Source: Candidatus Cloacimonadales bacterium (GTDB lineage Bacteria; Cloacimonadota; Cloacimonadia; Cloacimonadales; JAFGVF01). From it: a stretch of DNA of 64,000 nt. Both the position numbers and the translations under genes were made by a program. Shown piece after piece: positions 10,519 through 59,816 of this stretch. The DNA lies in NCBI GenBank assembly GCA_963677495.2, contig CAXXOU010000004.1, forward strand, positions 32,001-96,000, written 5' to 3'. The notes beneath the pieces are model-generated. The model was not told where the DNA came from. It was given only the letters and a program-made list of their open reading frames with translations, and ran no database searches. The number at the start of each line of letters is the position of its first letter. Position 1 is the first letter of the stretch.

Positions 10519-10990
10519 CGCATTTCAGGGAGTTTGCCGGACTGATAAGGAGAGCGGACTTCCTAAAATGCACTTCGAAGGAATCAGGCTTAGGTTTTCG
10601 TCATCGCCCCACACTTCGCTGCGGCCTGTCGGGGCGTAGCTTATAAGCGAAGATTGGTGCAAGTTAGAAAAGTATATACAGTCTCAGAAGCAGTCACCAG
10701 TGCGAGTTTACGAGCTTGGGGATATGTGGAAAAGATATGTTATCCGGTTACGCATTTCCCCGAACTCCCGCTAGTCGTAATGGTGACTGCTTCAGAATAC
10801 ATACACAGTGCAATTAGCAATGACTTACAACATTGGAGTCATAGTGAGTTTACGAGTTGGACTCATAGTGCTGTACCTTTGCCATTTTTCGCTATTCACC
10901 CATCTCCCTTCGGTCGCTATTGCGACAGCTTCAGAAAGATATACTCAGTGGCTTTTGCAATAACTTAGCTACACTTAATGCCCTTTTTAC
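10519..10990. repeat. Mosaic of REP-like palindromic repeats
   Basis: 10519-10575 is an inverted copy of 35458-35523; 10690-10722 of 31215-31247; 10756-10792 of 27205-27241; about 10880-10987 of about 32348-32450. Confidence 0.85.
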
Positions 10991-11000
10991 TCTCTTTTAC

Positions 11001-11129
11001 TGCTCTATCCATCAACGCACTGTGTCTGCACTGTGCACGCACTGTGAAGGCACTGCCAACCCACTGTTTCACTGGGTATACAGTGCGTGCACAGTGGGAA
11101 CACAGTGGGATGACTGCGTTTTGATAGAG
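11001..11129. repeat. 11-bp-phased palindromic array, core CACTG/CAGTG
   Basis: CACTG at 11018, 11029, 11040, 11051, 11062; centre TTT; right arm at 11070 (CACTG variant), then CAGTG at 11081, 11092, 11103; flanks CTCTATC...GATAGAG. Confidence 0.9.
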
Positions 11130-11297
11130 ACTTATAAGAAAGTGAGAAACAAATTACTTTATAGAGAAAGAAAAGTTTGGTTTAGTAAAGCTAGAGCTAA
11201 AAAATAACATGATGCTATAGAACCGAATAATCTGAAAGGATTAGGTTTAGAGCTTGAAGTCGGATATAGATAATTTAACTAACCTAAAAGAGTCTGA

Positions 11298-11810
11298 TTA
11301 TTTCTTTAACTCAGGACTCGGATAAAGATAGCCTAAAGATTTAGAACCTGTAGTTTTCAGATATGTTTCAGGACGCATCCATTCTGTAGTTCTTCCTAGA
11401 GCCGGGACTCCAATATAACCTCTTACATCAAGGTTCCCTTTCTTATTAAAGGTCATTTTACATTTATATGTTTTACCATTTTTAGGGTCATAGATAGTAC
11501 CGTTTTTCCATGTACCTTTTTTATGCTTGAAGCCTTGCATAATATTAAGACCTAATACGGGATTGTTTCTAAACTTCTCGTTAGGGTTGAATTTATCAAC
11601 TTTGGGTGCTCCGACTTTTCCTGCGGAAGCATCAGTATAAACCGGTTCTTTCAGGGCGACGATAGATGCTTCATATACTCCATCAACTTCTTTGATTTCA
11701 ACAACAGATGCAGCTTCATCAGTAACCCAATATCCGAGAATATCTTTTGCTGCAGAGAACAGAGCGAATGAAACGAGTAGTATTACAATTATGAACGTAG
11801 TTTTAAGCAT
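11298..11810 (-). CDS. DUF2147 family exported protein
   Basis: ILGYWVT, DKFNPN..RNNPVLGL, WKNGTIYDPKNGKTY, LDVRGYIG..LGRTTEW; GGAGG RBS before ATG 11810. Confidence 0.85.
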   Translation of the reverse strand: MLKTTFIIVILLVSFALFSAAKDILGYWVTDEAASVVEIKEVDGVYEASIVALKEPVYTDASAGKVGAPKVDKFNPNEKFRNNPVLGLNIMQGFKHKKGTWKNGTIYDPKNGKTYKCKMTFNKKGNLDVRGYIGVPALGRTTEWMRPETYLKTTGSKSLGYLYPSPELKK

Positions 11811-12022
11811 AAATACCTCCAAGTGATTAGAGTTCATTTTCTTCGAACCTAAACTCGTTTGTAAAGTAATAAATAATCTGTAACCTTTACGAAGTTTAGT
11901 GATTATTACATCAAAGATGTAAAAAGCAGGCTTGCGGATGGTTGTGAAGAATATTTTTATTGACACTTAAAATTTGACGAAGTTTGTGAAATAAGTAAAA
12001 TAATGACATTTATGGAGTGTAT

Positions 12023-13294
12023 ATGAAAAGGATTGCTTTCATTATCGCAATGGGGCTTTTGTTAATCAGTTTGAGAGCTGAAGGCTACAAATTAGAAGAG
12101 CTGATAGAATCAGGGATGAGTAAAGCATCATCCATTATAAGAAGTGAGATTAATCGCGATAATGCAGAATCTAGTCATGTATCCAGTTATCTTTCTTTCT
12201 TACCAGAAATTGGTGCTACATATAATCGATCAGGAAATGAAACTAATAATATTTATACAAACTCAGAAGGCTCATCTTATTATGTGAGTAAATCTGTTTC
12301 CTTGAATGAAGGTGATTATTTCCAATTCAGAAACACACTGATTGATACAGAAGTTGCTGATATTAACTATGAGATTGCCAAGAAGGAGTTAGCATATAAT
12401 ATCATTGAATCCTATCTAAATATTCTGCAAACCCAGAAGGAGCTTGAGATTCAACAAGAGAATTTAGCATTGCAAGAACGAGTTCTGGCTGAGATAGTGA
12501 TACAAGCAAAACAGGGTAGAAAGACATCCTTAGACTTGAATCAAGCAGAGATCGATAAGATTGATAGTGAAATTCAAATTGAGAATCTTACTAATTCATT
12601 GGTGAACATGAGAGCAAATCTCTTTAATCTGATACGTGTTGAGGATAGTGGAGCAAGCTTTTCAGATGTAACATTAAATATTATTGAAACTTCAAACTTA
12701 CCTGAATTCGAAGAGATAGAAGCTGATGGTAAAGGTAATCCATTGAGTTTTCAAGCAGACTATTTAAACTTAAAAAGTATGAAGATTAATGAATGGCAGT
12801 ATAAATTAAACTTCTTCCCTTCAATTAACTTAACTGCAAGTTATAATCAAACTTCAGTTGCAGATGAACCTTTTGAATATGATGAGACCGGAGAGTCCTA
12901 CTCAATTACCTTATCAGCATCATATTCCTTATGGAATCTATTGAATCAGAATGAGAATTACAGACGTTATAAGAATAGCATGAAACTTACAGAACTCAAT
13001 ATTGAAGATAATATTAACAGTCATAAAACGCAGTATGACCAGTTGATTAGAAATCTTGAGTACTTACATAAAGCAAAAGGTTTATATGAGCGAAAAGTAG
13101 CTCAAAGCTCAGAAAACCTTACAATAGCTAATGAAAAATATACATTAGGATTGATTGACTTGGTTGAGTTAGATAGATCTCGTATCTCTAACTTACAGTC
13201 ACGCATTTCACAAAATGATAATTACTACAGTATCCTGAAGACTCAGGAACAACTAAATAAGCTACTTTCACTCCCTATCATGGGACGTTGGTAA
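12023..13294 (+). CDS. TolC family outer membrane efflux protein
   Basis: Signal peptide, duplicated FLPEI/FFPSI motifs, helical repeats, YTLGLIDLVEL; upstream of an adaptor gene. Confidence 0.8.
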   Translation: MKRIAFIIAMGLLLISLRAEGYKLEELIESGMSKASSIIRSEINRDNAESSHVSSYLSFLPEIGATYNRSGNETNNIYTNSEGSSYYVSKSVSLNEGDYFQFRNTLIDTEVADINYEIAKKELAYNIIESYLNILQTQKELEIQQENLALQERVLAEIVIQAKQGRKTSLDLNQAEIDKIDSEIQIENLTNSLVNMRANLFNLIRVEDSGASFSDVTLNIIETSNLPEFEEIEADGKGNPLSFQADYLNLKSMKINEWQYKLNFFPSINLTASYNQTSVADEPFEYDETGESYSITLSASYSLWNLLNQNENYRRYKNSMKLTELNIEDNINSHKTQYDQLIRNLEYLHKAKGLYERKVAQSSENLTIANEKYTLGLIDLVELDRSRISNLQSRISQNDNYYSILKTQEQLNKLLSLPIMGRW

Positions 13295-13316
13295 TAGATT
13301 AAGAGGAGAGGTTTAG

Positions 13317-14420
13317 ATGAAAAGATTTATAACGGTATTGCTTAGCTTCCTAGTTCTTACAGCATGTAAGGTAGGAATGAAAAAGGGTGACTCACCTTTA
13401 GATACTAAGATACCAACTCATACTGTTAAACGGGGAGAGATTAAAACGAAATTAGATGTCACCGGTGAGATTCAACCAAAGAGCACAATTAAGGTTAAAT
13501 CCCGTGTGGCAGGGAAAATATTGAAGTTCTATGTAGATGAGAATGATTATGTAAATGAAGGTGATGTTATTGCTGATATTGAGCCTGATTACAATCAAGC
13601 TGAATCAATTTCCAGAACCAGAAGCAGTTTGAGACTTGCTGAGATCAGATTAACAAAAGCTGAGAAAGACTTTAATGATTACACTGAGTTATACAATAAA
13701 AACTATATTTCATTGAACGAGCTTACTAATGCATCAGATGAGTTTGAATCTGCCAGAATCAATCATGAGCAGGCATTAGAGCAGTATGAACTTGTAAAAG
13801 ATTTGGATTCAAAAGACTCAGTTACAAAGTTATATGCCACATCATCAGGAACAGTGATTTCACGTCTTGTTCAGGAAGGTGAAATGGTAACATCCAGTAA
13901 CGTAAGTTTTGGCGAGGGTACAGTTATTATGCATTTGGCAGACCTCACAAGAATGGTAGTTGAGTCAGAAGTTAATGAAGTAGATATTACTAAGTATCAT
14001 CGTAATCAGGTTGCATCAATCTTAGTAGATGCTTTCCCTTATGAAAAGTTTACGGGAAAGGTTAGTAAGATAGCTGCATCAGCGACAGATAAAAATGGAA
14101 CAAAGGTTTTCCCAATCCAAATCCATCTTGAAGGTAATATTGCGATGCTTAAACCCGGTATGACAGCGAATGTAAGTATTGAAGGAGAATCAAGAGCTGA
14201 TATTCTAATAATTCCAATCAGAGCAATATTCACAGACGAGAAGGGGCAGGATGTTGTATATCTCATGAAGGATGGCAAACCCGAGAAAGCAGTACCAATC
14301 AAAACAGGTATTAATGATTTCCAACAGGTTGAAATAATTGAAGGTGTTAACGAAAATGATATAATCACTCTTACAGAACCGGCGTCATTGGCACCGAAAT
14401 CTGAAGAGTTCGAATTCTAA
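13317..14420 (+). CDS. Efflux periplasmic adaptor (MFP)
   Basis: VKSRVAGKI, SGTVISRLVQEGE, VNEVDI, LKPGMTANV, IKTGIND. Confidence 0.9.
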   Translation: MKRFITVLLSFLVLTACKVGMKKGDSPLDTKIPTHTVKRGEIKTKLDVTGEIQPKSTIKVKSRVAGKILKFYVDENDYVNEGDVIADIEPDYNQAESISRTRSSLRLAEIRLTKAEKDFNDYTELYNKNYISLNELTNASDEFESARINHEQALEQYELVKDLDSKDSVTKLYATSSGTVISRLVQEGEMVTSSNVSFGEGTVIMHLADLTRMVVESEVNEVDITKYHRNQVASILVDAFPYEKFTGKVSKIAASATDKNGTKVFPIQIHLEGNIAMLKPGMTANVSIEGESRADILIIPIRAIFTDEKGQDVVYLMKDGKPEKAVPIKTGINDFQQVEIIEGVNENDIITLTEPASLAPKSEEFEF

Positions 14421-14435
14421 AAAAGGAGACAACTG

Positions 14436-15446
14436 ATGATTGAAGTCAGTAATGTAGTAAAAGACTATGGCACTCTCAGGGCAGTAGACAGCATTAGTTT
14501 CTCTGTCAATGAGGGAGAGATTGTCGGTTTTCTAGGACCAAATGGTGCAGGAAAATCAACTACTCTGAAAATGCTCACTGATTACCTGAAACCAACAGCA
14601 GGTAAGATTGAGATTAATGGTTTAGATATGGCTAAAGACTCTCTCAAAATCAGAGAATGGATTGGCTACTTGCCTGAACACAATCCGCTTTATGAAGATT
14701 TAACTGCTTATGATTACTTGAAGTTTGTTGCAAACATCAGAAACATAAGTGACAAAGATTTCAATTCCAGAATCGAAAGAGTTATCGAAGAATGTGGTAT
14801 TAAAAATGTAATAACACAGAAGATTGGTACTCTCTCAAAAGGTTACAGACAGCGTGTAGGGCTTGCACAAGCTATTCTGCATGATCCAAAAGTGATTATT
14901 ATGGATGAACCTACAACCGGTCTTGACCCTAACCAGATTCTAGAGATTAGAGAAGTTATCAGACGACTAGGTGAAAAGAAAACAGTTATTCTATCAAGTC
15001 ATATTATGCAGGAAGTTCAAGCAGTTTGTGACAGAATCATCATTATCAATAAAGGCAAGATTATTGCAGATGATAGGAAAGAAGTTCTTCAGTCTCAGCT
15101 AGCCGGTAAAACAGTACTTAGTCTTGAAATAATGGCAGATAATGCTAACTTCTATGATTTCAGAATGATTGATCCAACAATCAATATTTTCAATGAAAGT
15201 AAGATTAAAGGTAACATCTGGGAAGTAGTGCTTGAATACAGTAACAAGATTGATTTAAGAGAGAAGATATCTCGCTTTATCAATGAAAAAGGTTGGTTGA
15301 TTCTAAGTATGCAAAAACAGGAACGTTCTCTTGAGAAGATATTCCACGAACTTACTATGGATGGTGCACCAACAAGACAAGTTACAGATAATACTCAGTA
15401 CATTCCACAGTCTAACCCGGTTAATGCGGAGGAAGAAAATGAATAA
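14436..15446 (+). CDS. GldA-like ABC transporter ATPase
   Basis: GPNGAGKST, LSKGYRQRVGLAQA, MDEPTTGLDPNQI, SSHIMQEV. Confidence 0.9.
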   Translation: MIEVSNVVKDYGTLRAVDSISFSVNEGEIVGFLGPNGAGKSTTLKMLTDYLKPTAGKIEINGLDMAKDSLKIREWIGYLPEHNPLYEDLTAYDYLKFVANIRNISDKDFNSRIERVIEECGIKNVITQKIGTLSKGYRQRVGLAQAILHDPKVIIMDEPTTGLDPNQILEIREVIRRLGEKKTVILSSHIMQEVQAVCDRIIIINKGKIIADDRKEVLQSQLAGKTVLSLEIMADNANFYDFRMIDPTINIFNESKIKGNIWEVVLEYSNKIDLREKISRFINEKGWLILSMQKQERSLEKIFHELTMDGAPTRQVTDNTQYIPQSNPVNAEEENE

Positions 15447-16152
15447 TATCAAGTCAATTATCAAGAAAGAGCTTAATAGTTATTTAGTCTCTCCCGCCAC
15501 CTATATTGTGTTTGTTATCTTTCTTCTAATAACCGGTTGGTTCTTTAACAGCACTGTTTTCGTTATTGGAAGAGCAGAAATGAGATCCTTGTTCGGTACT
15601 TTACCAATGATATTCTTATTCTTCATACCAGCGATTACTATGGGTATGATTGCAAAAGAGAAAAACTCAGGTACGATTGAAATATTAGCAACATTGCCTT
15701 TGCAGGATAGCCAAATCGTTTTGGGCAAATTCTTTGCTGCTATTATTCTGATTGGTTCAACATTGCTTTTTACTCTTGTACACTTGTTCACAATAATGCA
15801 CTTTGGGCAGAACATCGATTATGGTGCAATTATATGGGGTTATGTCGGCTTATTCTTGGTTGCTTCAACATATTGTGCAATAGGAATCTTTGGTTCTTCG
15901 TTACATAGTAATCAGATTGTAGCTTTCATAATTAGTTTCGTGCTTGTGTTCTTTTTCTTTATTATAGATATGATATTGATTATATTCCCTGGTCCGGTTG
16001 CTGAATTCTTCCAATACTTAAGTATTAACTATCATTTCAGCAATTTGCAGAGAGGTGTTATAGATACACGTGATATTATATACTTTGCATCAATGATTAT
16101 CCTTTTCCTGAGAGGAGCTACTCTCTCTCTGGAATCAAGGAAATGGGATTAG
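15439..16152 (+). CDS. GldF-like ABC-2 permease
   Basis: KELNSYLVSP, FIPAITMG..AKEKNSGTIE, NQIVAF, GVIDTRD. Confidence 0.85.
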   Translation: MNNIKSIIKKELNSYLVSPATYIVFVIFLLITGWFFNSTVFVIGRAEMRSLFGTLPMIFLFFIPAITMGMIAKEKNSGTIEILATLPLQDSQIVLGKFFAAIILIGSTLLFTLVHLFTIMHFGQNIDYGAIIWGYVGLFLVASTYCAIGIFGSSLHSNQIVAFIISFVLVFFFFIIDMILIIFPGPVAEFFQYLSINYHFSNLQRGVIDTRDIIYFASMIILFLRGATLSLESRKWD

Positions 16153-16164
16153 GAGGTAAGTATA

Positions 16165-17772
16165 ATGAATAGAAAGAATGCTATAATAAACTTTGTTGTT
16201 ATCCTTGCTATCCTGATTGTTCTCAATCTGGTGTCATTGAATATATTCCATAGATTTGACTTCTCCAAAGACAAAGTGTTTACTCTCTCTAAATCCAGTA
16301 AAGAGATTGTAGGTGGACTTGAAGATAACCTTATTGTTAAAGCTTATTTTACAAAGAACCTTCCAAATCAGTATGCTGATTTAGGTCGCTATGTTCGTGA
16401 TATCTTATCTGACTACCAAACCTACTCACATGGACGTATGAAGTTTGATTTCATAAGCCCTAATGATGAAGATATGCTTAAGAATGAAGCCCGTATGAAC
16501 CAAATCCAACCTGCTCAGATTCAGATGCTGGAAAATGATAAAATGGAAGTTCGAGAAGTTTATATGGGACTCTATTTTGAGTATCAAGGTAACAGTGAAA
16601 GTATTCCACTTATCCAGGTTAAAGATGGTCTGGAGAATGATATTACCGGTATTATAAAGAGACTTTCAAGAGCTCAGATGGATAAAGTTACCCTTTACAC
16701 TGACCCTGAAGCAGAGAAAACAGATCATCAGTCAATCAGATACCTTTTGGGTAAGAACTATGAGATTAGTAGTAGTGACTTAATGACTCCAATTGAACCG
16801 GGTGTTAAAACACTTGTTATGGCTGGTGTCTCTGATTCACTTGATGTTGAGCAGCTTTATAACATCGACCAGTTCGTTATGAATGGTGGTAACCTTCTAG
16901 TTTTCCAGGATAGAGTGTCTATGGATGTACAAAAAGGTGAAGCTGAAGAGATTCATAGTAACTTCTTTGATCTTTTGGAGCATTGGAAGATAAATATTGC
17001 TCCAACACTTGTAGTTGATGAAAACTGTGGTCAAATCTCTGTTAGTCAGAGACAAGGACCATTTATAACTCAAGTTCCGGTTAAGTATCCATTGATTCCG
17101 GTTATCAACACTATGAGTAAAGAGAACCCAATAGTTAAGAAGCTTGAGAACTTAATACTTTTAGGTGCGTCTGAGATAGATGTTGAGATGGATTCTACTT
17201 CAACTGTAAACTTTACTCCATTATTTACTTCATCTAATCGTTCAGGTGCTATGTCCGGTCCAAACTATGGAATATCATTCCAACGTTTCCAGGGACAGAA
17301 GATTAACTCTCTGCTTAAAGATCCTTTTAGAGTTCTTTCAGGTCTCTTTGAAGGAGAGTTTACAAGTTACTTTACCTATAATCAAGAATTACAGAAAGCC
17401 GGTTTTGTACCTGCAAACAGTAATGGAAAGATAATTGTAGTAACTGACCAAGACTTCGTTAATGACAAAAGTGCCGGAAAGCAACCTAATAATTTAAACT
17501 TTGTTCTTAATTCTACAGACTTCCTTAATGGTGATTTATCATCTCTAGAGATTCGTTCAAGAACACTATCTTTAAGTGAACTGGATGTTAGGAAATATCT
17601 CCTAAGCAATGGAGTTAATCCAATGGATATTGACTCTGTAGAGAAGCGTACAAAACTTACTACTAAAACACTTAATATAGTACTTCCAAGCCTGTTATTG
17701 ATAGTGTTTGGACTAGCATACATTATCTATAAGCGTAAGCAAAGTGACAAAATCAGGAGGATATATGAATAA
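16165..17772 (+). CDS. GldG-like ABC transporter auxiliary component
   Basis: RFDFSKDKVFTLS, IDQFVMNGGNLLV, NLNFVLNSTDFL; N- and C-terminal TM helices. Confidence 0.85.
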   Translation: MNRKNAIINFVVILAILIVLNLVSLNIFHRFDFSKDKVFTLSKSSKEIVGGLEDNLIVKAYFTKNLPNQYADLGRYVRDILSDYQTYSHGRMKFDFISPNDEDMLKNEARMNQIQPAQIQMLENDKMEVREVYMGLYFEYQGNSESIPLIQVKDGLENDITGIIKRLSRAQMDKVTLYTDPEAEKTDHQSIRYLLGKNYEISSSDLMTPIEPGVKTLVMAGVSDSLDVEQLYNIDQFVMNGGNLLVFQDRVSMDVQKGEAEEIHSNFFDLLEHWKINIAPTLVVDENCGQISVSQRQGPFITQVPVKYPLIPVINTMSKENPIVKKLENLILLGASEIDVEMDSTSTVNFTPLFTSSNRSGAMSGPNYGISFQRFQGQKINSLLKDPFRVLSGLFEGEFTSYFTYNQELQKAGFVPANSNGKIIVVTDQDFVNDKSAGKQPNNLNFVLNSTDFLNGDLSSLEIRSRTLSLSELDVRKYLLSNGVNPMDIDSVEKRTKLTTKTLNIVLPSLLLIVFGLAYIIYKRKQSDKIRRIYE

Positions 17773-18712: not shown

Positions 18713-18720
18713 CTATAACA

Positions 18721-18750
18721 AAAGAGTCTGCTAGTTTTAGCAGACTCTTT
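18721..18750. terminator. Bidirectional intrinsic terminator
   Basis: AAAGAGTCTGCTA-GTTT-TAGCAGACTCTTT between convergent genes. Confidence 0.85.
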
Positions 18751-18762
18751 CTTTAAATTTCT

Positions 18763-21422: not shown

Positions 21423-21431
21423 ATCAACTCC

Positions 21432-26202: not shown

Positions 26203-26383
26203 TTACAAGTATAACCTTCACTGCCTTATTACTCCCTTTCAATAGACACACTATACAATTAAATAAGTTATCCACAACTTGTGACTAACTTGCTGCTTAG
26301 AGTAAGAGAGAAGTAAGTGTCAAGTAAGTGTGGAGTAAGAGTGTAGTAGGAATTGATTGGGTGTGATTCATCAGACCAGTGAG
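26203..26383. repeat. 11-bp-phased palindromic array, core AGTAAG, with flanks
   Basis: AGTAAG at 26301, 26312, 26323, 26334 and AGTAGG at 26345; degenerate left arm CTTGTG 26278, CTTGCT 26289; left flank resembles that of the 48.3 kb array. Confidence 0.7.
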
Positions 26384-26420: not shown

Positions 26421-26548
26421 CTGGAGTAACAATTACATAATCCCTATAAGTATCCTATATGACCCTTATATGAAACCTATATGAACATATAGGAATCTTA
26501 TCTGTTGGATATGGGATATTTTTACCCTTTATATGCTTATTGCTCCAG
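26421..26548. repeat. 11-bp-phased palindromic array, core CCTATA/TATAGG
   Basis: CCTATA 26443, 26454, CTTATA 26465, CCTATA 26476; centre CCTATATG-AA-CATATAGG; TATAGG 26488, TATCTG 26499, TATGGG 26510; flanks CTGGAG...CTCCAG. Confidence 0.8.
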
Positions 26549-26744
26549 GGCGTGGCGGGAGAAAAAGGAAAGAAAATAAAAAAAGATCCGGAAAACGTGC
26601 ACGAAAAATGGCATTTCGTGCACTTATATAAATAGGGGAGAAGTAAAATAGTTGTGAAAAACCAGAGTGAAAATGGCGAAAACCAGAGTTATATATTATA
26701 GGGACAGTCTATCGAGAAAACGAAAATTATAGAAAGGAGGAATT

Positions 26745-27197
26745 ATGAGACTGAGCTTATTACCCTTAATCACAGGCTTATCAGGCAGACTAGGCAAGCT
26801 TGTATTTTGTATCGAAAAGAAGTCCGGTGCCTGCTGGACAAGATTGTATGTAAAACCTGAGATAACTGAACACAACCATGAAATCGGTAGTGCTGCGAAG
26901 AACCTTAGTACTATCTATCATCAAGTAAATGAAGGTTACATGGATGATTTGAAAGATTATGTCGACCGCTTCAACTTGGAGTATCTTGAACACAAAGGTT
27001 ATATGAAGACTTTCCCCTGCTTCATGAAGATGATGTATGCGATGAAACGAAAGCACCCATCCGTGAACCTTAAGACTCTTACGATAGATCAAATCATGTC
27101 GGAAGACCTACCGGTTCGTTCAATCAGAGAAGCAGTAGAGCATGAACTACTCCCGGTTGTGAAACGGTATCAGGAGTTGAATGTCTCGATTGTGTGA
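26745..27197 (+). CDS. Uncharacterised protein with N-terminal GLSGRLGKLVF..R.YVKP motif
   Basis: AAGGAGG RBS, 150-aa ORF; N-terminus resembles SG(K/R)xGxxV uncharacterised FCB proteins (possibly DUF6266-like, tentative). Confidence 0.7.
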   Translation: MRLSLLPLITGLSGRLGKLVFCIEKKSGACWTRLYVKPEITEHNHEIGSAAKNLSTIYHQVNEGYMDDLKDYVDRFNLEYLEHKGYMKTFPCFMKMMYAMKRKHPSVNLKTLTIDQIMSEDLPVRSIREAVEHELLPVVKRYQELNVSIV

Positions 27198-32097: not shown

Positions 32098-32205
32098 AAC
32101 TTCTCCCTTCACTCTCACAAATTCATAATGCAACTATTATCTGTTAAAATCATTATGTCAAATGTTTTGTAGATATGTAAACCGGTTCCCGCTTTTTCTT
32201 CAGTT

Positions 32206-32360
32206 TCTATCAAAATGCAATCATCCCACTGTTTTCCCACTGTGCACTCACTGTGCACCCACTGAAACAGTGGGTTGGCAGTGCCTTAGCAGTGGTGACA
32301 CAGTGCGAGTACAGTGCGTTGGTAAAAAGTTCAGTGAAAGGCAGTGGAAAGGGCATTAAA
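32206..32360. repeat. 11-bp-phased palindromic array, core CACTG/CAGTG (inverted homolog of the 11.0 kb array)
   Basis: CACTG 32227, 32238, 32249, 32260; centre AAA; CAGTG 32268, 32279, 32290, 32301, 32312. Confidence 0.9.
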
Positions 32361-32382
32361 TATAGCTAAGTTACTGCAAAAA

Positions 32383-32820
32383 GCGCTGTGTATGAATTCA
32401 GAAGCTGTCGCAATAGCGACCAAAGGGAGATGGGTGAATAGCGAAAAGAGGTAATAATCGATTTCGTGACAAGACGCACCAACGCAGATGGTGCACTCCA
32501 TAATTGTAAGTTGTTGCAAATCGCGCTGTGTATGAATTCAGAAGCTGTCGCAATAGCGACCAAAGGGAGATGGGTGAATAGCGAAAAGAGGTAATAATCG
32601 ATTTCGTGACAAGACGCACCAACGCAGATGGTGCACTCCATAATTGTAAGTTGTTGCAAATCGCACTGTGAATGTATTCTGAAGCTGTCGGAATAGCGAC
32701 CAAAGGGAGATGGGTGAATAGCGAAAAGTGGCAATAATCAAATTCGTGACAAGACGCACCAACGCAGATGGTGCACTCCATAGTTGTAAGTTATTGGAAA
32801 ATGCGCTGTGTATGTTATTC
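32383..32820. repeat. Tandem repeat: three 140-bp units plus a partial fourth (BIME-like)
   Basis: Units start at 32383, 32523, 32663 (partial at 32803); the first two look identical, the third is diverged. Confidence 0.95.
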
Positions 32821-40666: not shown

Positions 40667-40764
40667 ACTTACCCTTTTGCTTACAGTTTTTGCTAATCAT
40701 CCAGCTTTTGGTGATATGTCAAGTAATGAATGATTCAAACTTATTCATACCTTTGCTATTTCAC

Positions 40765-40900
40765 TGCTCTATCATAATAACCATCACAAAATCATCAACT
40801 ACTGCTACTTTTCTTGTCAGTTTCTTATGCGCCAGCCAAGGGATTGCCCAAGAGACTCATAGGAATCGGATAGTTTTCTATGCTTTATTATGATAGAGCA
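40765..40900. repeat. Element bounded by a perfect 16-bp inverted repeat; probable degenerate member of the phased-array family
   Basis: TGCTCTATCATAATAA (40765-40780) / TTATTATGATAGAGCA (40885-40900). Confidence 0.75.
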
Positions 40901-40949
40901 TAGAAAGACTGAAGTGCTTGCTTTATTGGATTATATCCCTTAAAGAATC

Positions 40950-48269: not shown

Positions 48270-48434
48270 TTACAAGTATTTATATGCAACTGCTATGCTC
48301 TCTTTCAACAAACGGGACTTGCCCGGGATTTGTTCAGGAATTTAGTGGGACTTTCTCGGGCAAAGCCCCGAGTGATTCCCGAGAGAGTTCCGAGAGATTC
48401 CCGTGTGTGTCCCGAGGATTGAAAGGGGGCATAG
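48270..48434. repeat. 11-bp-phased palindromic array, core CGGGA/TCCCG
   Basis: Left units at 48313, 48324, 48335, 48346, 48357; right units at 48366, 48377, 48388, 48399, 48410; IR CTATGCTCTCTTTCAA / TTGAAAGGGGGCATAG. Confidence 0.9.
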
Positions 48435-48581
48435 AGGAAGCCATTGTATTGAATGCAATTTGAGGATCGATAAAACAGAATTGTGACTTGTTGCTTATCT
48501 ATGTTATTATTTCTTAATAATTAATCAATTGACAATAAATGCTTATCAAGCATAATATTACCCTAACGATTGGAGGTATAT

Positions 48582-52127: not shown

Positions 52128-52142
52128 AAACGAATGATAATT

Positions 52143-52170
52143 TAAGGCTATGAGAATTCTCATAGCCTTA
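52143..52170. terminator. Bidirectional terminator (perfect 28-bp palindrome)
   Basis: TAAGGCTATGAGAATTCTCATAGCCTTA between convergent genes. Confidence 0.8.
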
Positions 52171-52614
52171 TTTATTTACGTAAAGCTCCATTATTACTTC
52201 ATCATTAGCTTTGTATGTCTCACCGGTTTCTTTAAACCCAAGCTTTTTATAAAGGGCTTCAGCTCTCTTGTTATCTCTATTGTAATTCAGAGTAATGACC
52301 TTGCAATCATCAAACTCAGATAGATATTCAATCAATGCTTTCATTGCCTCAGTCCCATATCCTTTGCCTTGAAGCTTCTTATCTATTACAATCACAAGGA
52401 TATCGTATGCAATCCTGGGTTCCGTATCTTTCTCATAGGAAGCAAACCCAATGACATGATCATCTCGATAAATCGCTAAAGGTATTTTGGATGGTAGCAC
52501 ATATGATAAAGCGATATTATTAACAACCGGGGCAAGAAACTGAGGATCAATTCCGGTGTCTATATTAATACATGCTTTAATGTTCTCAATAGTTATAGGT
52601 TTGATTGTAATCAT
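52168..52614 (-). CDS. GNAT N-acetyltransferase
   Basis: IDKKLQGKGYG, NKRAEALYKKLGF. Confidence 0.9.
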   Translation of the reverse strand: MITIKPITIENIKACINIDTGIDPQFLAPVVNNIALSYVLPSKIPLAIYRDDHVIGFASYEKDTEPRIAYDILVIVIDKKLQGKGYGTEAMKALIEYLSEFDDCKVITLNYNRDNKRAEALYKKLGFKETGETYKANDEVIMELYVNK

Positions 52615-52773
52615 AATCTCTCCTTATTCGGATTATTTAAGTAGAAGTAAATTCTTTTAGGTCTGGTTGACAAGTAAAAATTATCAAGTCCTGTCCCAGT
52701 GAATGCTCTATCGAGCTGTGGCCAAGCAGGCAGCATGCTCTACAATTCGACTTGCAATATTGATCAACCTTCC

Positions 52774-53190
52774 AGCTCTGAAAGAGCGATTGTTTAATAG
52801 CCCCATGCGACAACTTGTCGCTTGGGATTAAAGATCTCGGACATTGATTTAGCCCTGAAGGGGCGTAAGAGCTCAAACGTGTTAATCTTTCGCCCCTATA
52901 GGGCTACTATCTTCTTTTATTACATTACCACATGCCAAAGCATATGGCTATTGAACAGACGCCTTTTCAAGGCTAAAGCAATCTATGAGAGCTATGTGCA
53001 AGTGAGGGCACTTACACTACATTCCAGCCCTAAATGGGCTGTTTGTGAATAGCCCCGAGTTTTGTGAACCCGGGGTAATGTACTCCATAAGACCATTATA
53101 ACCCTGAAGGGGTTCAACGATTCCTTTGTATGCAAAAACGATTTCCCGATAGGGAAACATAATACTAGCCATTGGATCCACGACCCATGG
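52774..53190. repeat. Cluster of AGCCCTGAAAGGGC-type REP-like palindromes
   Basis: AGCTCTGAAAGAGCG, AGCCCTGAAGGGGCG, CGCCCCTATAGGGCT, GCCTTTTCAAGGCT, AGCCCTAAATGGGCT, ACCCTGAAGGGGTT, with ATAGCCC hairpins. Confidence 0.75.
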
Positions 53191-53400
53191 ACATGAAACA
53201 AACAATCCCCAATCCGATTAGGATTGCACTAATACAATTTCCAAACAGTGGTATAATGCAATCCATGAAGATGGATTAACAAGTCTTGATTTAACCCTTG
53301 ACACCGAGAAAATGTATGGAGTTAATAAACAAAACAGATTGACCCAATATTTTGAATCTGCAGAAGCTTCCAAATATTGTGTCCTTAAAAGGTCGTAACT

Positions 53401-55791
53401 ATGAAAAGAATCATTCTATTTATACTTCTACTGCTTCCATTATTCTTATTTGCAAATATAATAACAATACCGGATGTTTTCACAACTATACAAGATGGTA
53501 TTGATGTTGCTGCTTCCGGAGATACTGTTTTAGTGTTACCCGGTACTTATTACGAAAATATTGAGTTTAGTAATAAATCCAATGTTACATTGTGCTCATT
53601 GGAAGCTACCACCGGAGATTCATCATACATACATACCACAATTATTAATGGGAGCAATGAGCAGAATCCTGTTATTTTATGTTTGCAGAATGTATATGAT
53701 TCTACTTTTAGAGGATTATCAATCACTGGTGGAACAGGTTGTGCTTTTTCAAGTGAAGGTGTTTATGGATGGTATGTATATGGTGGAGGACTGTATTTTG
53801 CATATGGATCAGATGTGTTCATAATTAATTGCGAAATATATGGTAATTCTGCATCAAAAGGAGGAGGAATATTTTGGGGGCATGAAGATGTAAATTGTTC
53901 AATGAGCAATGTGAACATTTATAACAATGTTGCGAAGTTTAGTGGTGGGGGAGTGTGTTTTGAAAGCTCAGGTGATGAATATAGCAATGTTGTCTTCGAC
54001 CAGATTGATAGATGCAGTATTTATAACAATTATAGTCCCATTGGAGCTGATATCGCATGGAATTACAATGATATGAACACAATTGATATATATCTTGACT
54101 TGTTTACATGGTATGAGCCTGCGAAGTATTATGTAGATGCGTTCGAAGCTCAATATGTTTATCCCAATATTAACCCACACCCAATCTTTGATATTCAAAG
54201 ATCATGTATAACACCTGTGGAGAATAACCTTTATGTATCTATGAGTGGAGATGATTCAAATAGTGGTCTAACGGTTGATGAACCTCTTCGAACAGCTTGG
54301 AAAGCGTTTCAACAAATCAATCCTAGTGATGATAATCCATTAACAGTTTTTCTACTTGATGGAGATTTTACTGAAATCGTAAATAATGAATGTGTTCCAA
54401 TAGTGACAAAATCAAACACAACATTACAAGGTGTGTCTACAGAATCTACTCATATTTATGCTTCGAACTTAGTTAATGCTCCTGTCTCATCCTCTATATC
54501 ATTGGGAACACATCATACAAATACTACAATCAGGGATTTAGCTATCACTGTTGATCATGGTTCTGCAATTGGTGGTTATAGTCCGTTAAATGCTGTGTTA
54601 GATAATATTCTGGTTATTGACTCAGACATAGCTCATCACAATAGTGCTTTGAATTTTAACGGCACAAATGGCACATTGTCCCTTACTAACTCAAAGATTA
54701 TTAATAATACTTCTAGTATTGGAACTGCTTTAATTTGCACTATTAGTGAGATATTGATTGAGAATGTAGATTTTATTGGTAATAGTACTGTATGGGACGG
54801 TGGCTTTGATATAGCATTTGGGGTGCATAGAATCTATGCTTTAAACGAAGTCATTATAAGGAATTGCAGGTACATTAATAACAGCCTTTATAATGATTCA
54901 TATGTAGGTTTGATTGATATTTTTGCATTAGATAATTATCCCAAAGTTTTGTTTGATAATTGCTTAGTAGCCAACAATACTGTTTCTGGTGTTGGATATT
55001 CATTTGTTTGTAATAGTGATTATGAAGAGATAGTTGTCACTAACTCCACTTTTGCAAATAACACAGGTGTTTCGGACTACTTTTTATCATTCCATGATTC
55101 AGCCAATGTATCGAATTGTATTGTGTATAATAATATAGGCCATAATTATGATATTGGTATGCATGGAAACTCAAGTATCAACAACTGCTTATTTAGTAAT
55201 TCAACAGATATATATAATGTTTATTTAGATGAGCCCATAGAATTTGGTGCTAACAACCTAGTTGGAACCGACCCATTATTTGTAGGTGGAGATCCTGCAT
55301 TTCTTGAATACTATTATCTATCAGGAGATGATACCGAGATGGGACCTTCTCCTGCTATAGATGCAGGGACAATGGATTTATCACTATTCCCTGCAAACTA
55401 CGAGTTCCCTTTATATGATCTTGCAGGTGAGGATAGGATTTATGGCAGTAGCATCGATATTGGTTGCTATGAGTTCCCCGGGTATACAAATGCACAAGAT
55501 GAAGTTCCGAGTCTTGAACCTTACAGTTTAGCTAACTACCCTAATCCTTTTAATCCTTCAACTAACATCTCATTTACAATACCGGTGAAGACTAAGGTTG
55601 AACTTGCTGTCTATAATGTGAAAGGGCAGAGAATCAAAACTTTATATCATGATGAGATGGAGAGTGGGGAGCATCATGTTGTATGGGATGGTAAGGATGA
55701 TGATAACAGAACTGTATCATCAGGAATTTATTTTTGTAAGATGAGAAGTAAAGGTAAGAGTATTACTACGAAAATGGTGTTGATGAAATAG
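53401..55791 (+). CDS. Secreted beta-helix protein with FlgD-Ig/Por-type C-terminal domain; paralog of 8198-10498
   Basis: TIQDGI..GDTVLVLPGTYYEN, FDQIDRCSIYNN, YVSMSGDDSNSG, DIGCYE, NYPNPFNPSTNI. Confidence 0.8.
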   Translation: MKRIILFILLLLPLFLFANIITIPDVFTTIQDGIDVAASGDTVLVLPGTYYENIEFSNKSNVTLCSLEATTGDSSYIHTTIINGSNEQNPVILCLQNVYDSTFRGLSITGGTGCAFSSEGVYGWYVYGGGLYFAYGSDVFIINCEIYGNSASKGGGIFWGHEDVNCSMSNVNIYNNVAKFSGGGVCFESSGDEYSNVVFDQIDRCSIYNNYSPIGADIAWNYNDMNTIDIYLDLFTWYEPAKYYVDAFEAQYVYPNINPHPIFDIQRSCITPVENNLYVSMSGDDSNSGLTVDEPLRTAWKAFQQINPSDDNPLTVFLLDGDFTEIVNNECVPIVTKSNTTLQGVSTESTHIYASNLVNAPVSSSISLGTHHTNTTIRDLAITVDHGSAIGGYSPLNAVLDNILVIDSDIAHHNSALNFNGTNGTLSLTNSKIINNTSSIGTALICTISEILIENVDFIGNSTVWDGGFDIAFGVHRIYALNEVIIRNCRYINNSLYNDSYVGLIDIFALDNYPKVLFDNCLVANNTVSGVGYSFVCNSDYEEIVVTNSTFANNTGVSDYFLSFHDSANVSNCIVYNNIGHNYDIGMHGNSSINNCLFSNSTDIYNVYLDEPIEFGANNLVGTDPLFVGGDPAFLEYYYLSGDDTEMGPSPAIDAGTMDLSLFPANYEFPLYDLAGEDRIYGSSIDIGCYEFPGYTNAQDEVPSLEPYSLANYPNPFNPSTNISFTIPVKTKVELAVYNVKGQRIKTLYHDEMESGEHHVVWDGKDDDNRTVSSGIYFCKMRSKGKSITTKMVLMK

Positions 55792-55809
55792 TATCATAGT
55801 ATAATTAGT

Positions 55810-55839
55810 AAGAGTGCTCTAAGGTAGGGCACTCTTTTT
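55810..55839 (+). terminator. Intrinsic terminator
   Basis: AAGAGTGCTCTA..TAGGGCACTCTT followed by a T run. Confidence 0.75.
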
Positions 55840-55869
55840 ATTTGACAAGCAAAAAGCTCTTACTTAAAT

Positions 55870-57090
55870 ATGCGTATGAAAAAGGCATTAATCAACCCTG
55901 ATGTAACAATGGTGCTTTATATCTTGTTACTAATAATGACTCCGTTCCTGATGTTAATGAACTATCTTCAACAGTTTATTGGAGATTTTTCTAAGTTATC
56001 ATTCAGTCTTGGACCTGTGAATATTCCCTATAGTGTATCGATTGTTGTGGTTGTTTTAACTGCGACATTGATTGCATTTAGGAAGCAGATTACCCCACTA
56101 AAATTGCTGTTTTCACTAATTACAATCGGTTTGTTCTTTGTGGGGCAACAGATGAGTGACTGGTATTTTAATCACACTTACTATGACCTTCAGCATAATT
56201 GGCATTATGTTGCTTATGGCATCTTTGCGTTTATCGCATATAGAGCCTTCCGACGTAAGGGATATAGTGAAACGAAGATAATTTACTTAACTTTCATCAC
56301 TGCCATCATTGCCAGTAGTTTTGATGAATTTGTGCAAGTCTATATCTCTTCACGTATATTCGATGTGTCTGATATTGCAAAGGATACTTTCGGTGTATGT
56401 GTAGGTTTGTTCTTCTTACATTTCGTTCTCAAAGATAGATTTATTCTTAAGAATAGGGTAGAAGTAAAGACGTTAAAAGAGTACTTACATCAACCTATCC
56501 CTGCATTAAGAGTTTGCTTTATCTTTGCTTTTGTTATGCTTGCATTATCCTCATTACTTACAGACGAGAAGTACGTAGTTCATAACTTCGTGGGCTCGAT
56601 AATAGTTAGTAGTATAATCGTGTATTTAGTATATGCATGCAGAAACAAGATTGTACGATATGTGACGTTAGGATTGCTAATCTTGATATGCCTTTCAGGA
56701 ATAATCTCTTATCAGCTCAACAAGGATTATGGAGTGATGCAGGCAAAATATGGCTTCACTGTTTATCGTGGAATCCCAATTCCGTTTTTTGATATCTTCA
56801 TCTTCGAAGATGGTTCGTTCAGACTTGTTGATAAGAAGCATAGCTTTAATGCCAGGGATAGGAATAAGATATTATTTGAAGCATCAGATATTGTTATAAT
56901 CGGAGCAGGCTATAAGAATAAGGGTGGGAAAGGCTTTAACTTAGAGCGTAAGTCAGGTTTTATCTACAATACGGATAAGAAGATGGGGACACAATTTATA
57001 ATCCAAAGAACAGATAAAGCTGTAGAAACATATAACAAACTACGCAGGGAGGGAAAGAATGTCACGTTCGTCATCCATACAACCTGCTAA
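55870..57090 (+). CDS. Membrane protein with VanZ-like domain and C-terminal Mth938-like domain
   Basis: HYVAYG, DEFVQVYISSRIFDVSDI (VanZ); IVIIGAG, TDKAVETYN, IHTTC (Mth938/DUF498). Confidence 0.65.
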   Translation: MRMKKALINPDVTMVLYILLLIMTPFLMLMNYLQQFIGDFSKLSFSLGPVNIPYSVSIVVVVLTATLIAFRKQITPLKLLFSLITIGLFFVGQQMSDWYFNHTYYDLQHNWHYVAYGIFAFIAYRAFRRKGYSETKIIYLTFITAIIASSFDEFVQVYISSRIFDVSDIAKDTFGVCVGLFFLHFVLKDRFILKNRVEVKTLKEYLHQPIPALRVCFIFAFVMLALSSLLTDEKYVVHNFVGSIIVSSIIVYLVYACRNKIVRYVTLGLLILICLSGIISYQLNKDYGVMQAKYGFTVYRGIPIPFFDIFIFEDGSFRLVDKKHSFNARDRNKILFEASDIVIIGAGYKNKGGKGFNLERKSGFIYNTDKKMGTQFIIQRTDKAVETYNKLRREGKNVTFVIHTTC

Positions 57091-58000
57091 GAAGCATATT
57101 GAATCCTTGGAACTTCAAGATAAAGTATTGGGTATTATAGTTGTATCGTTTTGGGCATTTCTGCTAGTTTTTGGACTCCTTACACTTGTTTTAGGAGATT
57201 ACTGGCTAGGTAAAGCAGAAAAGACAGGACGATATACAGAAGCTAAAAGCTTCAAGAACCAAGCTGACTTGCTCATGCAAGAGCAAAAATATCAACAAGC
57301 GATACATATATATAATGACGTTCTAAAACTTAGTCCTGATTATCTGGATGCACTCGGTAACAGTGCTATCGCACATATGAATCTAAAGCAGTATGATAAA
57401 GCTATTCAACAATATAAAACGTTGCTAAAGAAGGGATATAAAGAACCTGAGAAGTGTTATGCAGGTATTGCAACTTGCTATCAGCATAAGAATGACATCA
57501 GTAAAGCGATTGAGTACTATACGAAAGCAGAGGAAGCATCACCAATTGAAGGAAAGAATAGTCTTTCTTTAGCTCATCTCTTGGCAGGACAAAGTAATTT
57601 CCCGGAAGCTATAAAGCATTATGAAGCCGGGATAAGAAGCATATCCTCATTTAAGGATGAGTATTTGAGAATGCTGGCCAAACTCAGGAACATCAATATT
57701 GTAGAGAATACTTTCTCAGATAAGAGCTCAGAGGACATCAGTAAGTTGTATCATGAACTTATGAATAGTGCTCCTTCTGATGAAGAGTTAAGTGCCAGAT
57801 ATAGTAAAGGTCACTTTAACAGTACTCTATATTACAATCGAGAGTTAGCAGATGCCTACAATAATCTTGGGCTTTGTTATGCCCAAATTGGTAGATTGCA
57901 AGAAGCTAAATCCAACTTCGAGTATGCTTTGAAGATACTGCCGGGATATAAAGGTGCGGAACGTAATCTAAGTTTAGTAAAGAAAGACCTAAATAAATAG
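57059..58000 (+). CDS. Membrane-anchored TPR protein
   Basis: One TM helix followed by TPR repeats (e.g. ADAYNNLGLCYAQIG). Confidence 0.8.
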   Translation: MSRSSSIQPAKKHIESLELQDKVLGIIVVSFWAFLLVFGLLTLVLGDYWLGKAEKTGRYTEAKSFKNQADLLMQEQKYQQAIHIYNDVLKLSPDYLDALGNSAIAHMNLKQYDKAIQQYKTLLKKGYKEPEKCYAGIATCYQHKNDISKAIEYYTKAEEASPIEGKNSLSLAHLLAGQSNFPEAIKHYEAGIRSISSFKDEYLRMLAKLRNINIVENTFSDKSSEDISKLYHELMNSAPSDEELSARYSKGHFNSTLYYNRELADAYNNLGLCYAQIGRLQEAKSNFEYALKILPGYKGAERNLSLVKKDLNK

Positions 58001-58009
58001 GGTTTTAAT

Positions 58010-59410
58010 ATGTATATAGAAGAAAAAGATCCATTAGTACGGGCTAAACTGGAAAAGTGGCAAGACTTGAAGTTTGGTTTAATGATGCACTGGGGTGCAT
58101 ACAGCGTTTGGGGTATTGTGGAGTCATGGTCGATTTGTCCCGAAGAGTATGAATGGTGCGAGCGGAAACATGGCTCGAATCCCAATGACTACAACACTTA
58201 TGTTCGAGATTATGAACAGCTACCAAAAGTCTTTAATCCAACTAAGTTCAATCCACAAAAATGGGCAGAGACAGCTAAGAAAGCCGGTATGAAATATGTT
58301 GTCTTTACAACTAAACATCATGATGGGTTCTGCATGTATGACTCTAATTTTACTGATTACAAAATCACTAATCCTAAATATCCTTTTAGTGACGATAAGA
58401 ATGCGGATATTAGCTTAGCTGTTTTTAATGCTTTTAGGGATGCCGGAATGTGGGCTGGTGTTTATTTCTCTAAACCTGATTGGCATAGTCCCCACTATTG
58501 GGATCCTAAGTATCCACCTAAAAACAGGAATGTTAACTATAATCCCGAATCTAATCCTGAGAAATGGCAAAAGTTTGTTGATTTTACTCATAATCAGATT
58601 TTAGAACTTATGAGTGGATATGGAAATATAGACATTCTTTGGCTTGATGGCGGTTGGGTAAGGAAGAAGAGTAATCAGGAGATACAGGAGTATTACAGTA
58701 ATATTCTTAACAATCCCGGTGATAACTACATTATTGAACACATGATTAATCAAGATATCAAGATGGATGATTTAGTGGAGAAAGCAAGAGTCAAACAACC
58801 GGGACTCATTGTAGTTGATAGAGAGGTTAAGGGTAAGAACCAAAATTATCTAACCCCGGAGAACACGGTTCCGGAAAAGGAACTACCCTATCCTTGGGAA
58901 TCATGCATCATTGCAGGTGGTGGTTGGTCCTATTCAGAAGATGCGAAGTATATGAGTGGTCGAGAAGCTATTCATCTGCTTATTGATATTGTCGCTAAAG
59001 GTGGGAATCTACTTCTAAACATTGCTCCATCACCGGAAGGGGAGTGGCAGGAAGGTGCATATAAACTTCTAGGTGAGTATGCAGACTGGTTAGCTGTTAA
59101 TGGTGAAGGCATATATGAAACCAGAGCTCTAGCTCCGTATAAGGAGAACAACATCTGTATGACACAAAAGAAGGATGGGACAAAGTATTTCTTCTATCTT
59201 GCTGATGAAGAAGAGGAACTTCCATCTGAGATTGTAATCAAGTCACATTGTCCAGAAGCAGGTTCTAAAGTCTATATGCTAGGGTATGATGCTGCTTTGA
59301 AATGGTACAAGTTAGATAAGGGTTTCAAAGTAATAATATCTGATAGTATAAGAAAGAATCCACCATGTAAATATGCCTGGGGAATAAAGATGTACACCGA
59401 TCACCCCTGA
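58010..59410 (+). CDS. Alpha-L-fucosidase (GH29)
   Basis: KFGLMMHWG, TTKHHDGF, ILWLDGG, GGNLLLNI, NGEGIY. Confidence 0.92.
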   Translation: MYIEEKDPLVRAKLEKWQDLKFGLMMHWGAYSVWGIVESWSICPEEYEWCERKHGSNPNDYNTYVRDYEQLPKVFNPTKFNPQKWAETAKKAGMKYVVFTTKHHDGFCMYDSNFTDYKITNPKYPFSDDKNADISLAVFNAFRDAGMWAGVYFSKPDWHSPHYWDPKYPPKNRNVNYNPESNPEKWQKFVDFTHNQILELMSGYGNIDILWLDGGWVRKKSNQEIQEYYSNILNNPGDNYIIEHMINQDIKMDDLVEKARVKQPGLIVVDREVKGKNQNYLTPENTVPEKELPYPWESCIIAGGGWSYSEDAKYMSGREAIHLLIDIVAKGGNLLLNIAPSPEGEWQEGAYKLLGEYADWLAVNGEGIYETRALAPYKENNICMTQKKDGTKYFFYLADEEEELPSEIVIKSHCPEAGSKVYMLGYDAALKWYKLDKGFKVIISDSIRKNPPCKYAWGIKMYTDHP

Positions 59411-59467
59411 TCGGTCTTAACATAGTGCAATTGTCCCCTCATGCAGATAGCTCAATAAGAGCTATGA

Positions 59468-59512
59468 ATTCCCCTCTTACAGAGAGGTGCCCTTTTAACG
59501 GTGGGGTGTTTT
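59468..59512. repeat. ATTCCCCTC-type REP-like unit, copy of 35275-35318
   Basis: ATTCCCCTCT..AGAG.GGTG..TTTTAACGGTGG.GTGTTTT at both loci. Confidence 0.75.
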
Positions 59513-59640
59513 ACTAGCGTTAGATTTTTACAGGACATTCATCAGCTTTAACTATGTTATAGCATATTACATTCAGTGTTAGTTGACTCCTACGTCACAG
59601 CAATTCAGGAGAATCAGTACAATGGAAATCTGAAGTATAA

Positions 59641-59740
59641 CCACGCATTTTCCACGGGTAAACCACGCCTAAACCACGGGAGCTGTGGTCAACCCGTGGA
59701 TTACCCGTGGTAAGGTTTGCCATTTGTATGTCGGATTGAT
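59641..59740. repeat. 11-bp-phased palindromic array, core CCACG/CGTGG
   Basis: CCACG 59641, 59652, 59663, 59674; TGTGG 59684; CGTGG 59695, 59706. Confidence 0.85.
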
Positions 59741-59816
59741 GCTGGCTTATTTCGATTTGAAATGCAGTGATATTCTACACTATTTATTCAATAATTCCAG
59801 TCACAATTGCTAGAAA

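Follow-up and report, generated by a model that had tools for sequence, protein, structure and literature searches.

We report here on small dispersed repeats with an exact 11-bp internal period in the genome of a Candidatus Cloacimonadales bacterium (GCA_963677495.2). The analysis concerns a 64,000-nucleotide stretch of contig CAXXOU010000004.1 (positions 32,001 to 96,000; hereafter the window), in which a preliminary description, made from the sequence alone, had pointed out six arrays of a short word that recurs every 11 bp and then inverts across a short centre. These arrays are copies of several small dispersed repeat families, of which the genome has at least nine, and the array pattern in this genome is real and highly non-random. 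The reading that we tentatively prefer, at not quite an even chance, is that the families are mobile elements resembling MITEs (miniature transposable elements with inverted repeats), whose phased words would be stacked protein-binding sites.

Repeat families with an 11-bp period

The genome under study (G000; 3,408,260 bases in four contigs, 37% G+C), which holds the window, was scanned for self-matches at a fixed lag with a threshold of at least 28 of 44 positions. A lag of 11 gave 266 matches, merging to 238 loci in the 3.41-Mb genome. The same scan gave 0 at lag 8, 2 at lag 10, 1 at lag 13, 21 at lag 12, and 43 at lag 7, and block-shuffled genomes gave 0 to 2 hits. At a stricter setting, the numbers were 78 at lag 11 and 0 in the shuffles. 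Mirror arrays were sought separately, a match being a pair of phased runs in opposite orientation that together hold five or more exact 5-mer words. The genome contains 93 at period 11 and none at each of periods 9, 10, 12, and 13; shuffling, which had been named as the check on the arrays, left 0, 0, and 0 in three shuffled genomes, so the arrays stand far above chance.

The 238 loci were grouped by BLAST into 17 clusters. The largest is CACTG (F0, 67 loci), followed by F1 (GTGACCCTCTC beside a palindromic pair of TTATCCACA words, 46 loci), CCAAG (F2, 42 loci), CCACG (F3, 32 loci), CGGGA (F4, 18 loci), CCCGTTAG (F5, 17 loci), and TATAGG (F6, 4 loci); two more clusters have 2 members each, and eight are singletons. 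In the six large families, the median identity between pairs of copies is 84 to 92%. The elements are about 100 to 190 bp long and non-coding, and no element carries a gene. The preliminary description had proposed non-autonomous elements with a conserved frame and a core re-specified at each locus. The first part holds: the families are dispersed, non-autonomous, and non-coding and share an architecture of an 11-bp period, inverted arms, and terminal inverted repeats rich in pyrimidines at the left end and in purines at the right. The second part had to be given up, as the core is specific to the family, and every window array has between 4 and 67 relatives at other genomic loci.

All six window arrays lie where they had been placed, and writing each in lines of 11 nt shows a single exact 11-nt register that runs through its centre. 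The CACTG/CAGTG words span 11019 to 11110 and 32227 to 32320. The first of these copies (copy A) occupies 10937 to 11128 on the forward strand, about 190 bp, with bounds taken from an alignment of the 64 full-length CACTG copies. Its non-palindromic left module of 75 bp (10937 to 11010) is followed by a hairpin array with 11-bp spacing, consisting of five CACTG words and one offset word and then three CAGTG words. Copy B (32205 to 32396, reverse strand) is inverted relative to copy A and shows 84.3% identity (BLAST, C4:64194-64473). The CGGGA/TCCCG element (48296 to 48440, forward strand; words at 48313 to 48419) has the terminal inverted repeat TGCTCTCTTTCAA/TTGAAAGGGGGCA and a central 6-bp hairpin. 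The CCACG/CGTGG array (59641 to 59716, forward strand; words at 59641 to 59711) consists of four words and then three inverted ones and represents the cluster of 32 loci.

The AGTAAG and CCTATA arrays had also been described as two-armed, and of each the phased arm is present. The AGTAAG element (26232 to 26362, forward strand; words at 26298 to 26350) has five phased AGTAAG/AGTAG words in its right arm, and the CCTATA/TATAGG element (26428 to 26560, forward strand; words at 26443 to 26515) has four phased CCTATA-type words ahead of an inverted arm that is weak. Degeneracy affects the left arm in the former and the right arm in the latter. The AGTAAG element contains a TTATCCACA word at 26269 to 26277, was put into the CCACG cluster by linkage, and has about 7 to 11 BLAST relatives, its own window copy included. 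The CCTATA/TATAGG element belongs to a cluster of 4 in the strict scan and has about 8 BLAST relatives, including its own copy. A further, degenerate element (40757 to 40905, forward strand) carries two CCAAG words, and its terminal inverted repeat is GCTCTATCATAATAA/TTATTATGATAGAGC.

The outer left arm is pyrimidine-rich (CTCTC or CCCTTC) and the right arm is its purine-rich complement in about 8 of the 10 families inspected, and never the reverse. Terminal inverted repeats are found in the consensus sequences of F0, F1, F2, F4, F6, and F8 and in folds, and none is evident in F3. The word GCTCTATC, with its complement GATAGAGC, closes the CACTG hairpin, 6 of the 18 CGGGA copies, and the degenerate element at 40757 to 40905; the remaining CGGGA copies mostly have CTTTCAA/TTGAAAG as the closing pair. 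The flanks had been thought to be related despite their different cores. That view stands as a general terminal-repeat theme, while the flank words listed for it are mostly weak. TGCTCTATC does recur, as a terminal inverted-repeat word in the CACTG family, the same number of CGGGA copies, and the 40757 to 40905 element. For GGA(A)TTG, however, only 3 of the 17 clusters have it in the majority of their copies, against 14% of random 200-bp windows from intergenic DNA, and TTACAAGTAT has 24 genomic occurrences, 20 of them inside genes, with only the two window cases adjoining arrays.

Although crude gene calls take up about 86% of the genome, most loci (227 of 238) lie outside them. Gene context was tandem for 106, divergent for 87, and convergent for 33 of 226 classed loci, near the share of intergenic bases in each class. 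Elements of different families are often 50 to 400 bp apart.

Folding, conservation, and distribution

Most arrays can fold as hairpins. The copy A hairpin (11002 to 11128) has an RNA folding energy of −74.3 kcal/mol (z −6.0) and a DNA z of −6.75. On its true symmetry axis it forms an 18-bp perfect stem and an 8-bp stem. For the CACTG copy at 11018 to 11107, the linkers had been said mostly not to pair, and the array not to be a simple hairpin; for copy A this is wrong because the linkers TGCACG and CGTGCA pair on the true axis. DNA folds of other arrays have z values from −3.7 to −3.0 (copy B, −3.67; AGTAAG, −3.37). The CCTATA stretch folds no better than shuffles (z −1.4; 20 of 200 shuffles). 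In the fold of the CGGGA element, pairing is confined to the words and terminal repeats, and the linkers form internal loops.

Conservation was examined in 22 CACTG hairpins, taken from two species, in which the words do not vary and the linkers are variable and often unpaired. The hairpins are 85.5% paired, compared with 84.7% in shuffles, and 60 of 500 shuffles equal this value. Compensatory two-sided changes are not enriched, and covariation is not significant, among these 22. The alignment of the 18 CGGGA copies shows conservation of the TCCCG arm together with its linkers, and this arm is near-unchanged in the sister genome G001; the CGGGA arm, including that of the window element at 48296 to 48440, is degenerate. 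This inequality of arms disfavours a purely structural hairpin. The words thus appear to be conserved as sequence rather than for pairing, and one arm can apparently matter more than the other. Both points suggest a reader of double-stranded DNA, which fits better than a purely structural hairpin but is not proven by these comparisons.

The CACTG element is present in all three other genomes of the genus (72 to 81% identity) and in none of 37 genomes of other genera from the same family and order. In 400-kb samples, lag-11 arrays numbered 31 in G000, 15 in G001, and 0 in G004 (another genus of the same family). The words in G001 include CGGGA, CACTG, and GAGTAAG, plus new ones such as TATGCAAG and CCAAYGG. 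On present sampling, the families appear to be restricted to one genus.

Array positions are little conserved between the two species. Two of the 15 G001 arrays are syntenic in G000, only 1 of them with an array there; 11 have flanks that lie far apart, and 2 have no match. A comparison of orthologous loci for empty sites, as suggested in the preliminary description, yielded one at the CCACG locus, where the intergenic region is about 400 bp here and the orthologous G001 junction is under about 70 bp and has no array. A role of arrays as special synteny breakpoints was rejected; long array-free intergenic regions behave alike, with 37 breaks, 14 syntenic cases, and 5 without a match among 56. 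Between G001 (C1:1000001-1400000) and G000, gene order breaks at 37 of 51 long intergenic regions with matches and at 19 of 58 short ones.

Four CACTG words at exact 11-bp spacing occur in at least 115 stretches of a species-representative genome collection. The 80 retrieved are mostly simple perfect 11-bp tandem repeats from many phyla, unrelated to these elements. They include three loci with a mirrored arm from one Candidatus Cloacimonadota metagenome-assembled genome and six Sphingobacterium loci, which have CACTGA words, variable linkers, and a conserved 50-bp leader before the words. Of four Sphingobacterium genomes, three have the three-word CACTGA pattern at 12, 10, and 11 separate loci and the fourth has it at one, and a reversed control pattern had no matches in these four genomes. 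In all four (G041 to G044), one CACTGA array lies 165 bp upstream of a DUF6266 gene (G042:C10:633943-633981); the other Sphingobacterium loci looked at have different neighbour genes. These arrays suggest that the phenomenon is wider than one genus.

Associated genes and candidate explanations

All called proteins were clustered, and the clusters were tested for excess adjacency to arrays. Enrichment of neighbouring gene families, raised earlier as a check, was found for one family of 22 paralogs of about 150 residues, 12 of which are array-adjacent, compared with 436 of 2,408 genes overall (p 1e-4). The other enriched clusters are artefactual reading frames inside repeats and one gene of the IS3 (insertion sequence) type. 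One of the 22 paralogs, at 26745 to 27197 (forward strand), encodes a 150-residue protein just downstream of the AGTAAG and CCTATA arrays. An array lies within 1.5 kb of 13 of the 22 paralogs, in all 13 cases upstream at 167 to 1170 bp (expected upstream share, 0.62; p 0.002). The upstream arrays come from seven different clusters, of families common elsewhere in the genome.

The paralog family has 371 representatives at an E value of ≤0.001 in a large protein library. Pfam gave nothing at an E value of ≤0.001 for 24 members (best, 0.006), and a sequence profile search of PDB with the 150-residue protein had a best E value of 0.11. The structure model has a predicted local distance difference test (pLDDT) score of 85.5; with it, Foldseek found nothing in PDB at an E value of ≤0.001, and the best Z in the wide VIA-align search was 4.4, several ribbon-helix-helix rows reaching 3 to 4, below any useful threshold. 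Dimer prediction scored 0.05 against a mark of 0.42. Homology of the family to DUF6266 was considered and not accepted (hhalign probabilities of 0.6% and 4%, over only a 22- to 29-residue N-terminal motif). The link between paralogs and arrays is statistical only, and DNA binding by the 150-residue protein cannot be asserted. Phased arrays of a second class have a period of 7 bp and AATGCTA/AATGCAA-like words, with 43 lag-7 loci genome-wide; 7-bp arrays and a recurring TATAGTTATAGAGG-like motif are found upstream of 150-residue paralog genes, e.g., at G000:C1:775400-775600.

Each element is an imperfect palindrome with pyrimidine-left, purine-right terminal inverted repeats, and each arm carries three to five copies of a family-specific 5- to 8-bp word exactly 11 bp apart. 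Such exact spacing puts the words on one face of the double helix. In the reading that we tentatively prefer, the words would serve as stacked sites for a trans-acting protein, either a transposition protein or a host protein, that binds cooperatively along each arm, and pairing of the two inverted arms would follow, leading to excision and insertion. What we infer here is that the arrays are mobile and are bound by a protein that assembles cooperatively. Protein-loading sites, as put forward in the preliminary description, would fit with words that are better conserved than linkers.

Several observations weigh against mobile elements of this kind. Among left and right halves of six families, searched in G000 only, no pair is split by a coding insert that could represent an autonomous partner, except for one IS insertion. 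The multi-copy coding elements in the genome are of the IS21 and IS3 types, and their ends differ from the arrays. A target-site duplication could not be defined, as element edges are fuzzy and the sole empty site is too diverged. The phased words of F1 and F5 are on one side only, and the reading of at least nine different words would demand either many separate specificities of binding or a single reader able to adapt. In tandem contexts, 24 of 30 CACTG elements point the same way as the neighbouring genes (p 0.0014), which hints at a transcript-level or regulatory constraint and not at neutral insertion. The constant upstream position of the arrays at 13 of the 22 paralogs suggests a local role.

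In an alternative that we consider unlikely, the arrays would be host regulatory or architectural binding arrays, read by diversified small DNA-binding proteins (possibly the 22-paralog family), much as centromere or operator iterons of plasmids are, and spread by duplication, not transposition. The 11-bp phasing and word conservation would agree with it, as would the 12 of 22 paralog genes directly beside an array, the upstream placement in 13 of 13 cases, and the comparable CACTGA arrays in Sphingobacterium (10 to 12 loci in three of four genomes and one upstream of DUF6266 in all four). However, the 150-residue protein has no recognised DNA-binding fold or Pfam match, only 13 of the 238 arrays are near paralog genes, and the arrays upstream of these genes belong to families common elsewhere in the genome. 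The non-word sequence is also 84 to 92% identical among copies, which fits the copying of whole elements. Rather unlikely, too, is that the arrays are REPIN-like hairpins moved as single-stranded DNA by repetitive extragenic palindrome (REP)-associated tyrosine transposases (RAYTs, of the Y1 HUH type), with the phasing reflecting stem growth. The genome has 14 matches to Y1_Tnp, 13 of them above the Pfam cut-off, most arrays fold better than shuffles, REP-type modules adjoin arrays, and a CACTG element lies about 120 bp upstream of a distant Y1 gene (C4:1048609-1048947). Nearly all Y1 genes are nevertheless single-copy, with multi-copy repeats on both sides that are short classical hairpins or 140-bp modules, and 11-bp arrays were not found as cognate flanks at any of the 14 matches. 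Against RAYT-driven movement there are also the lack of significant covariation, the degenerate left arm of CGGGA, and the orientation of CACTG elements, which tracks genes and not GC skew (38 of 64, p 0.17; genes prevail 6 to 2 in cases of conflict).

Low folding energies, the co-orientation of CACTG elements with genes (24 of 30), and a GUUUUG after the CACTG hairpin foot would be expected of structured RNA elements co-transcribed with their neighbours, such as stabilisers, attenuators, or protein sponges, and the helical repeat of A-form RNA is 11 nt. We nonetheless regard this as very unlikely: there is no match to Rfam 15 at gathering score in the whole window (over 10500 to 60000, only two sub-threshold miRNA-hairpin matches, with E values of about 0.008), no sigma-70-type promoter or terminator-like site inside the elements tested, and no significant covariation, and most families are near-symmetric, with no significant orientation bias (F1, 7 versus 10; F4, 4 versus 0; F5, 5 versus 4). 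The least probable explanation is a mutation by-product with no reader, arising by replication slippage within one arm and hairpin-templated repair to the other, with the period inherited from one ancestor. It would account for differing words in an otherwise similar frame, and perfect 11-bp tandem repeats are common across bacteria, but drift of the linkers contrasts with words that stay the same in diverged copies and across species, so selection on the words would be needed, and conservation is unequal between the arms. Of intermediate standing, and distinctly doubtful, is a reading as mobile “iteron cassettes” belonging to a hitherto undescribed protein-DNA system, in which diversified small proteins, perhaps the 22-paralog family of the 150-residue protein, would read family-specific words stacked at one turn. 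The cassettes would then mark or organise variable, rearrangement-prone intergenic islands, and the CACTGA arrays of Sphingobacterium would be a related form.

The elements are best filed among small dispersed palindromic repeats (MITE or REP-like), with the exact one-turn phasing of family-specific words as their distinguishing trait. That the arrays are not a recognised family was confirmed insofar as Rfam gave no match at gathering score and the arrays differ from the repeats flanking RAYT genes. Full-text literature searches, judged at the level of their listings, found no paper on such arrays. Like REPs, bacterial interspersed mosaic elements, and REPINs with their RAYTs, the elements are short, extragenic, palindromic, and multi-copy and form mosaic islands with other repeats, in a genome with many Y1 genes; unlike in those systems, the RAYT genes here are flanked by other short hairpins, and array orientation does not follow replication direction. 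We know of no internal 11-bp word periodicity in REPs. Pneumococcal BOX and Neisseria Correia elements are likewise modular, and here the CACTG hairpin follows one or more 140-bp modules; word periodicity and multiple word families are, to our knowledge, not features of either. CRISPR arrays, with repeats of 24 to 48 bp and unique spacers of similar size, were excluded, as the units here are 11 bp, with words of 5 to 8 bp and linkers of 3 to 6 bp.

The words of the arrays can be likened to the subterminal motifs of Ac/Ds and En/Spm. MITEs such as Emigrant/Lemi1 (reported in PMC1636448) are similarly non-coding, with terminal inverted repeats and short arm motifs inverted between the arms. Relative to MITEs with subterminal transposase-binding repeats, the elements described here differ in their exact 11-bp spacing, their bacterial host, the lack of an autonomous partner found in G000, and the lack of a defined target duplication. 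Plasmid R1 parC, bound by ParR, has two sets of five 11-bp repeats. Arrays of the iteron type resemble those here in having short words at one-turn spacing in direct and inverted sets, and some arrays here are upstream of a small gene. They differ in that the present arrays comprise at least nine word families spread over about 240 loci of the chromosome, have no linked partition or regulator gene, and share sequence beyond the words. The 11-bp direct repeats reported for CarH operators (PMC9304148) and the omega-repressor heptads (PDB 2bnw) invite the same comparison.

If the words are binding sites, they would offer, in natural form, nine or more short DNA words on one scaffold and, if this is true, a ready-made system for how a protein family or one adaptable protein shifts its DNA specificity. 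The elements fill long intergenic regions where gene order breaks between species and therefore may shape genome rearrangement in these little-studied anaerobic-digester bacteria.

Adjoining repeats, insertion sequences, and other features

Repeat modules of about 140 bp, at times in tandem, lie upstream of many CACTG copies. Three tandem REP-type modules of this length (32397 to 32790, reverse strand) adjoin CACTG copy B, and related ones lie by copy A at 10654 to 10936. The first 20 or so bases of these modules are the same as the start of the CACTG element, and RAYT-like genes at other genomic loci are flanked by modules of these types. Examples of Y1 genes are found at C1:910675-911031 and C4:22181-22528, in the layout known for RAYT genes.

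The palindromic pair of TTATCCACA words in F1 is seen, e.g., at C2:34380-34442. This word, the textbook DnaA-box consensus, has 154 genomic copies, 64 of them by F1 arrays; the mean for permuted 9-mers is 54. Five copies form a cluster of their own at C1:766199-766412, possibly the replication origin.

An IS21-type element of 2361 bp is present in 17 copies with at least 99.7% identity (G000:C4:1304911-1307271 and 16 other places), none in the window. Its products are presumably a 501-residue transposase-like and a 243-residue ATPase-like protein, names that follow family features. Several copies lie inside hairpin repeats, namely in the centre of a CACTG hairpin, in the left module of another CACTG element, and at the centre of an F1 palindrome, and one copy is beside an F5 array. 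An IS3-type element of about 1.4 to 1.5 kb is present in 6 copies (G000:C2:359326-360836 and five others), each abutting the right end of a CCAAG (F2) element; their identical position suggests site-specific insertion into F2.

The window neighbours are ordinary chromosomal genes, including those for type IX secretion substrates, efflux components, a radical SAM enzyme, and a fucosidase, and the window has no tRNA genes. CACTGA plus 5 bases also forms perfect 11-bp tandem repeats in many phyla, often located at apparent gene ends (L103, L157, L170, L173, L181, and others). Because 11 is not a multiple of 3, such repeats present TGA repeatedly in all three reading frames.

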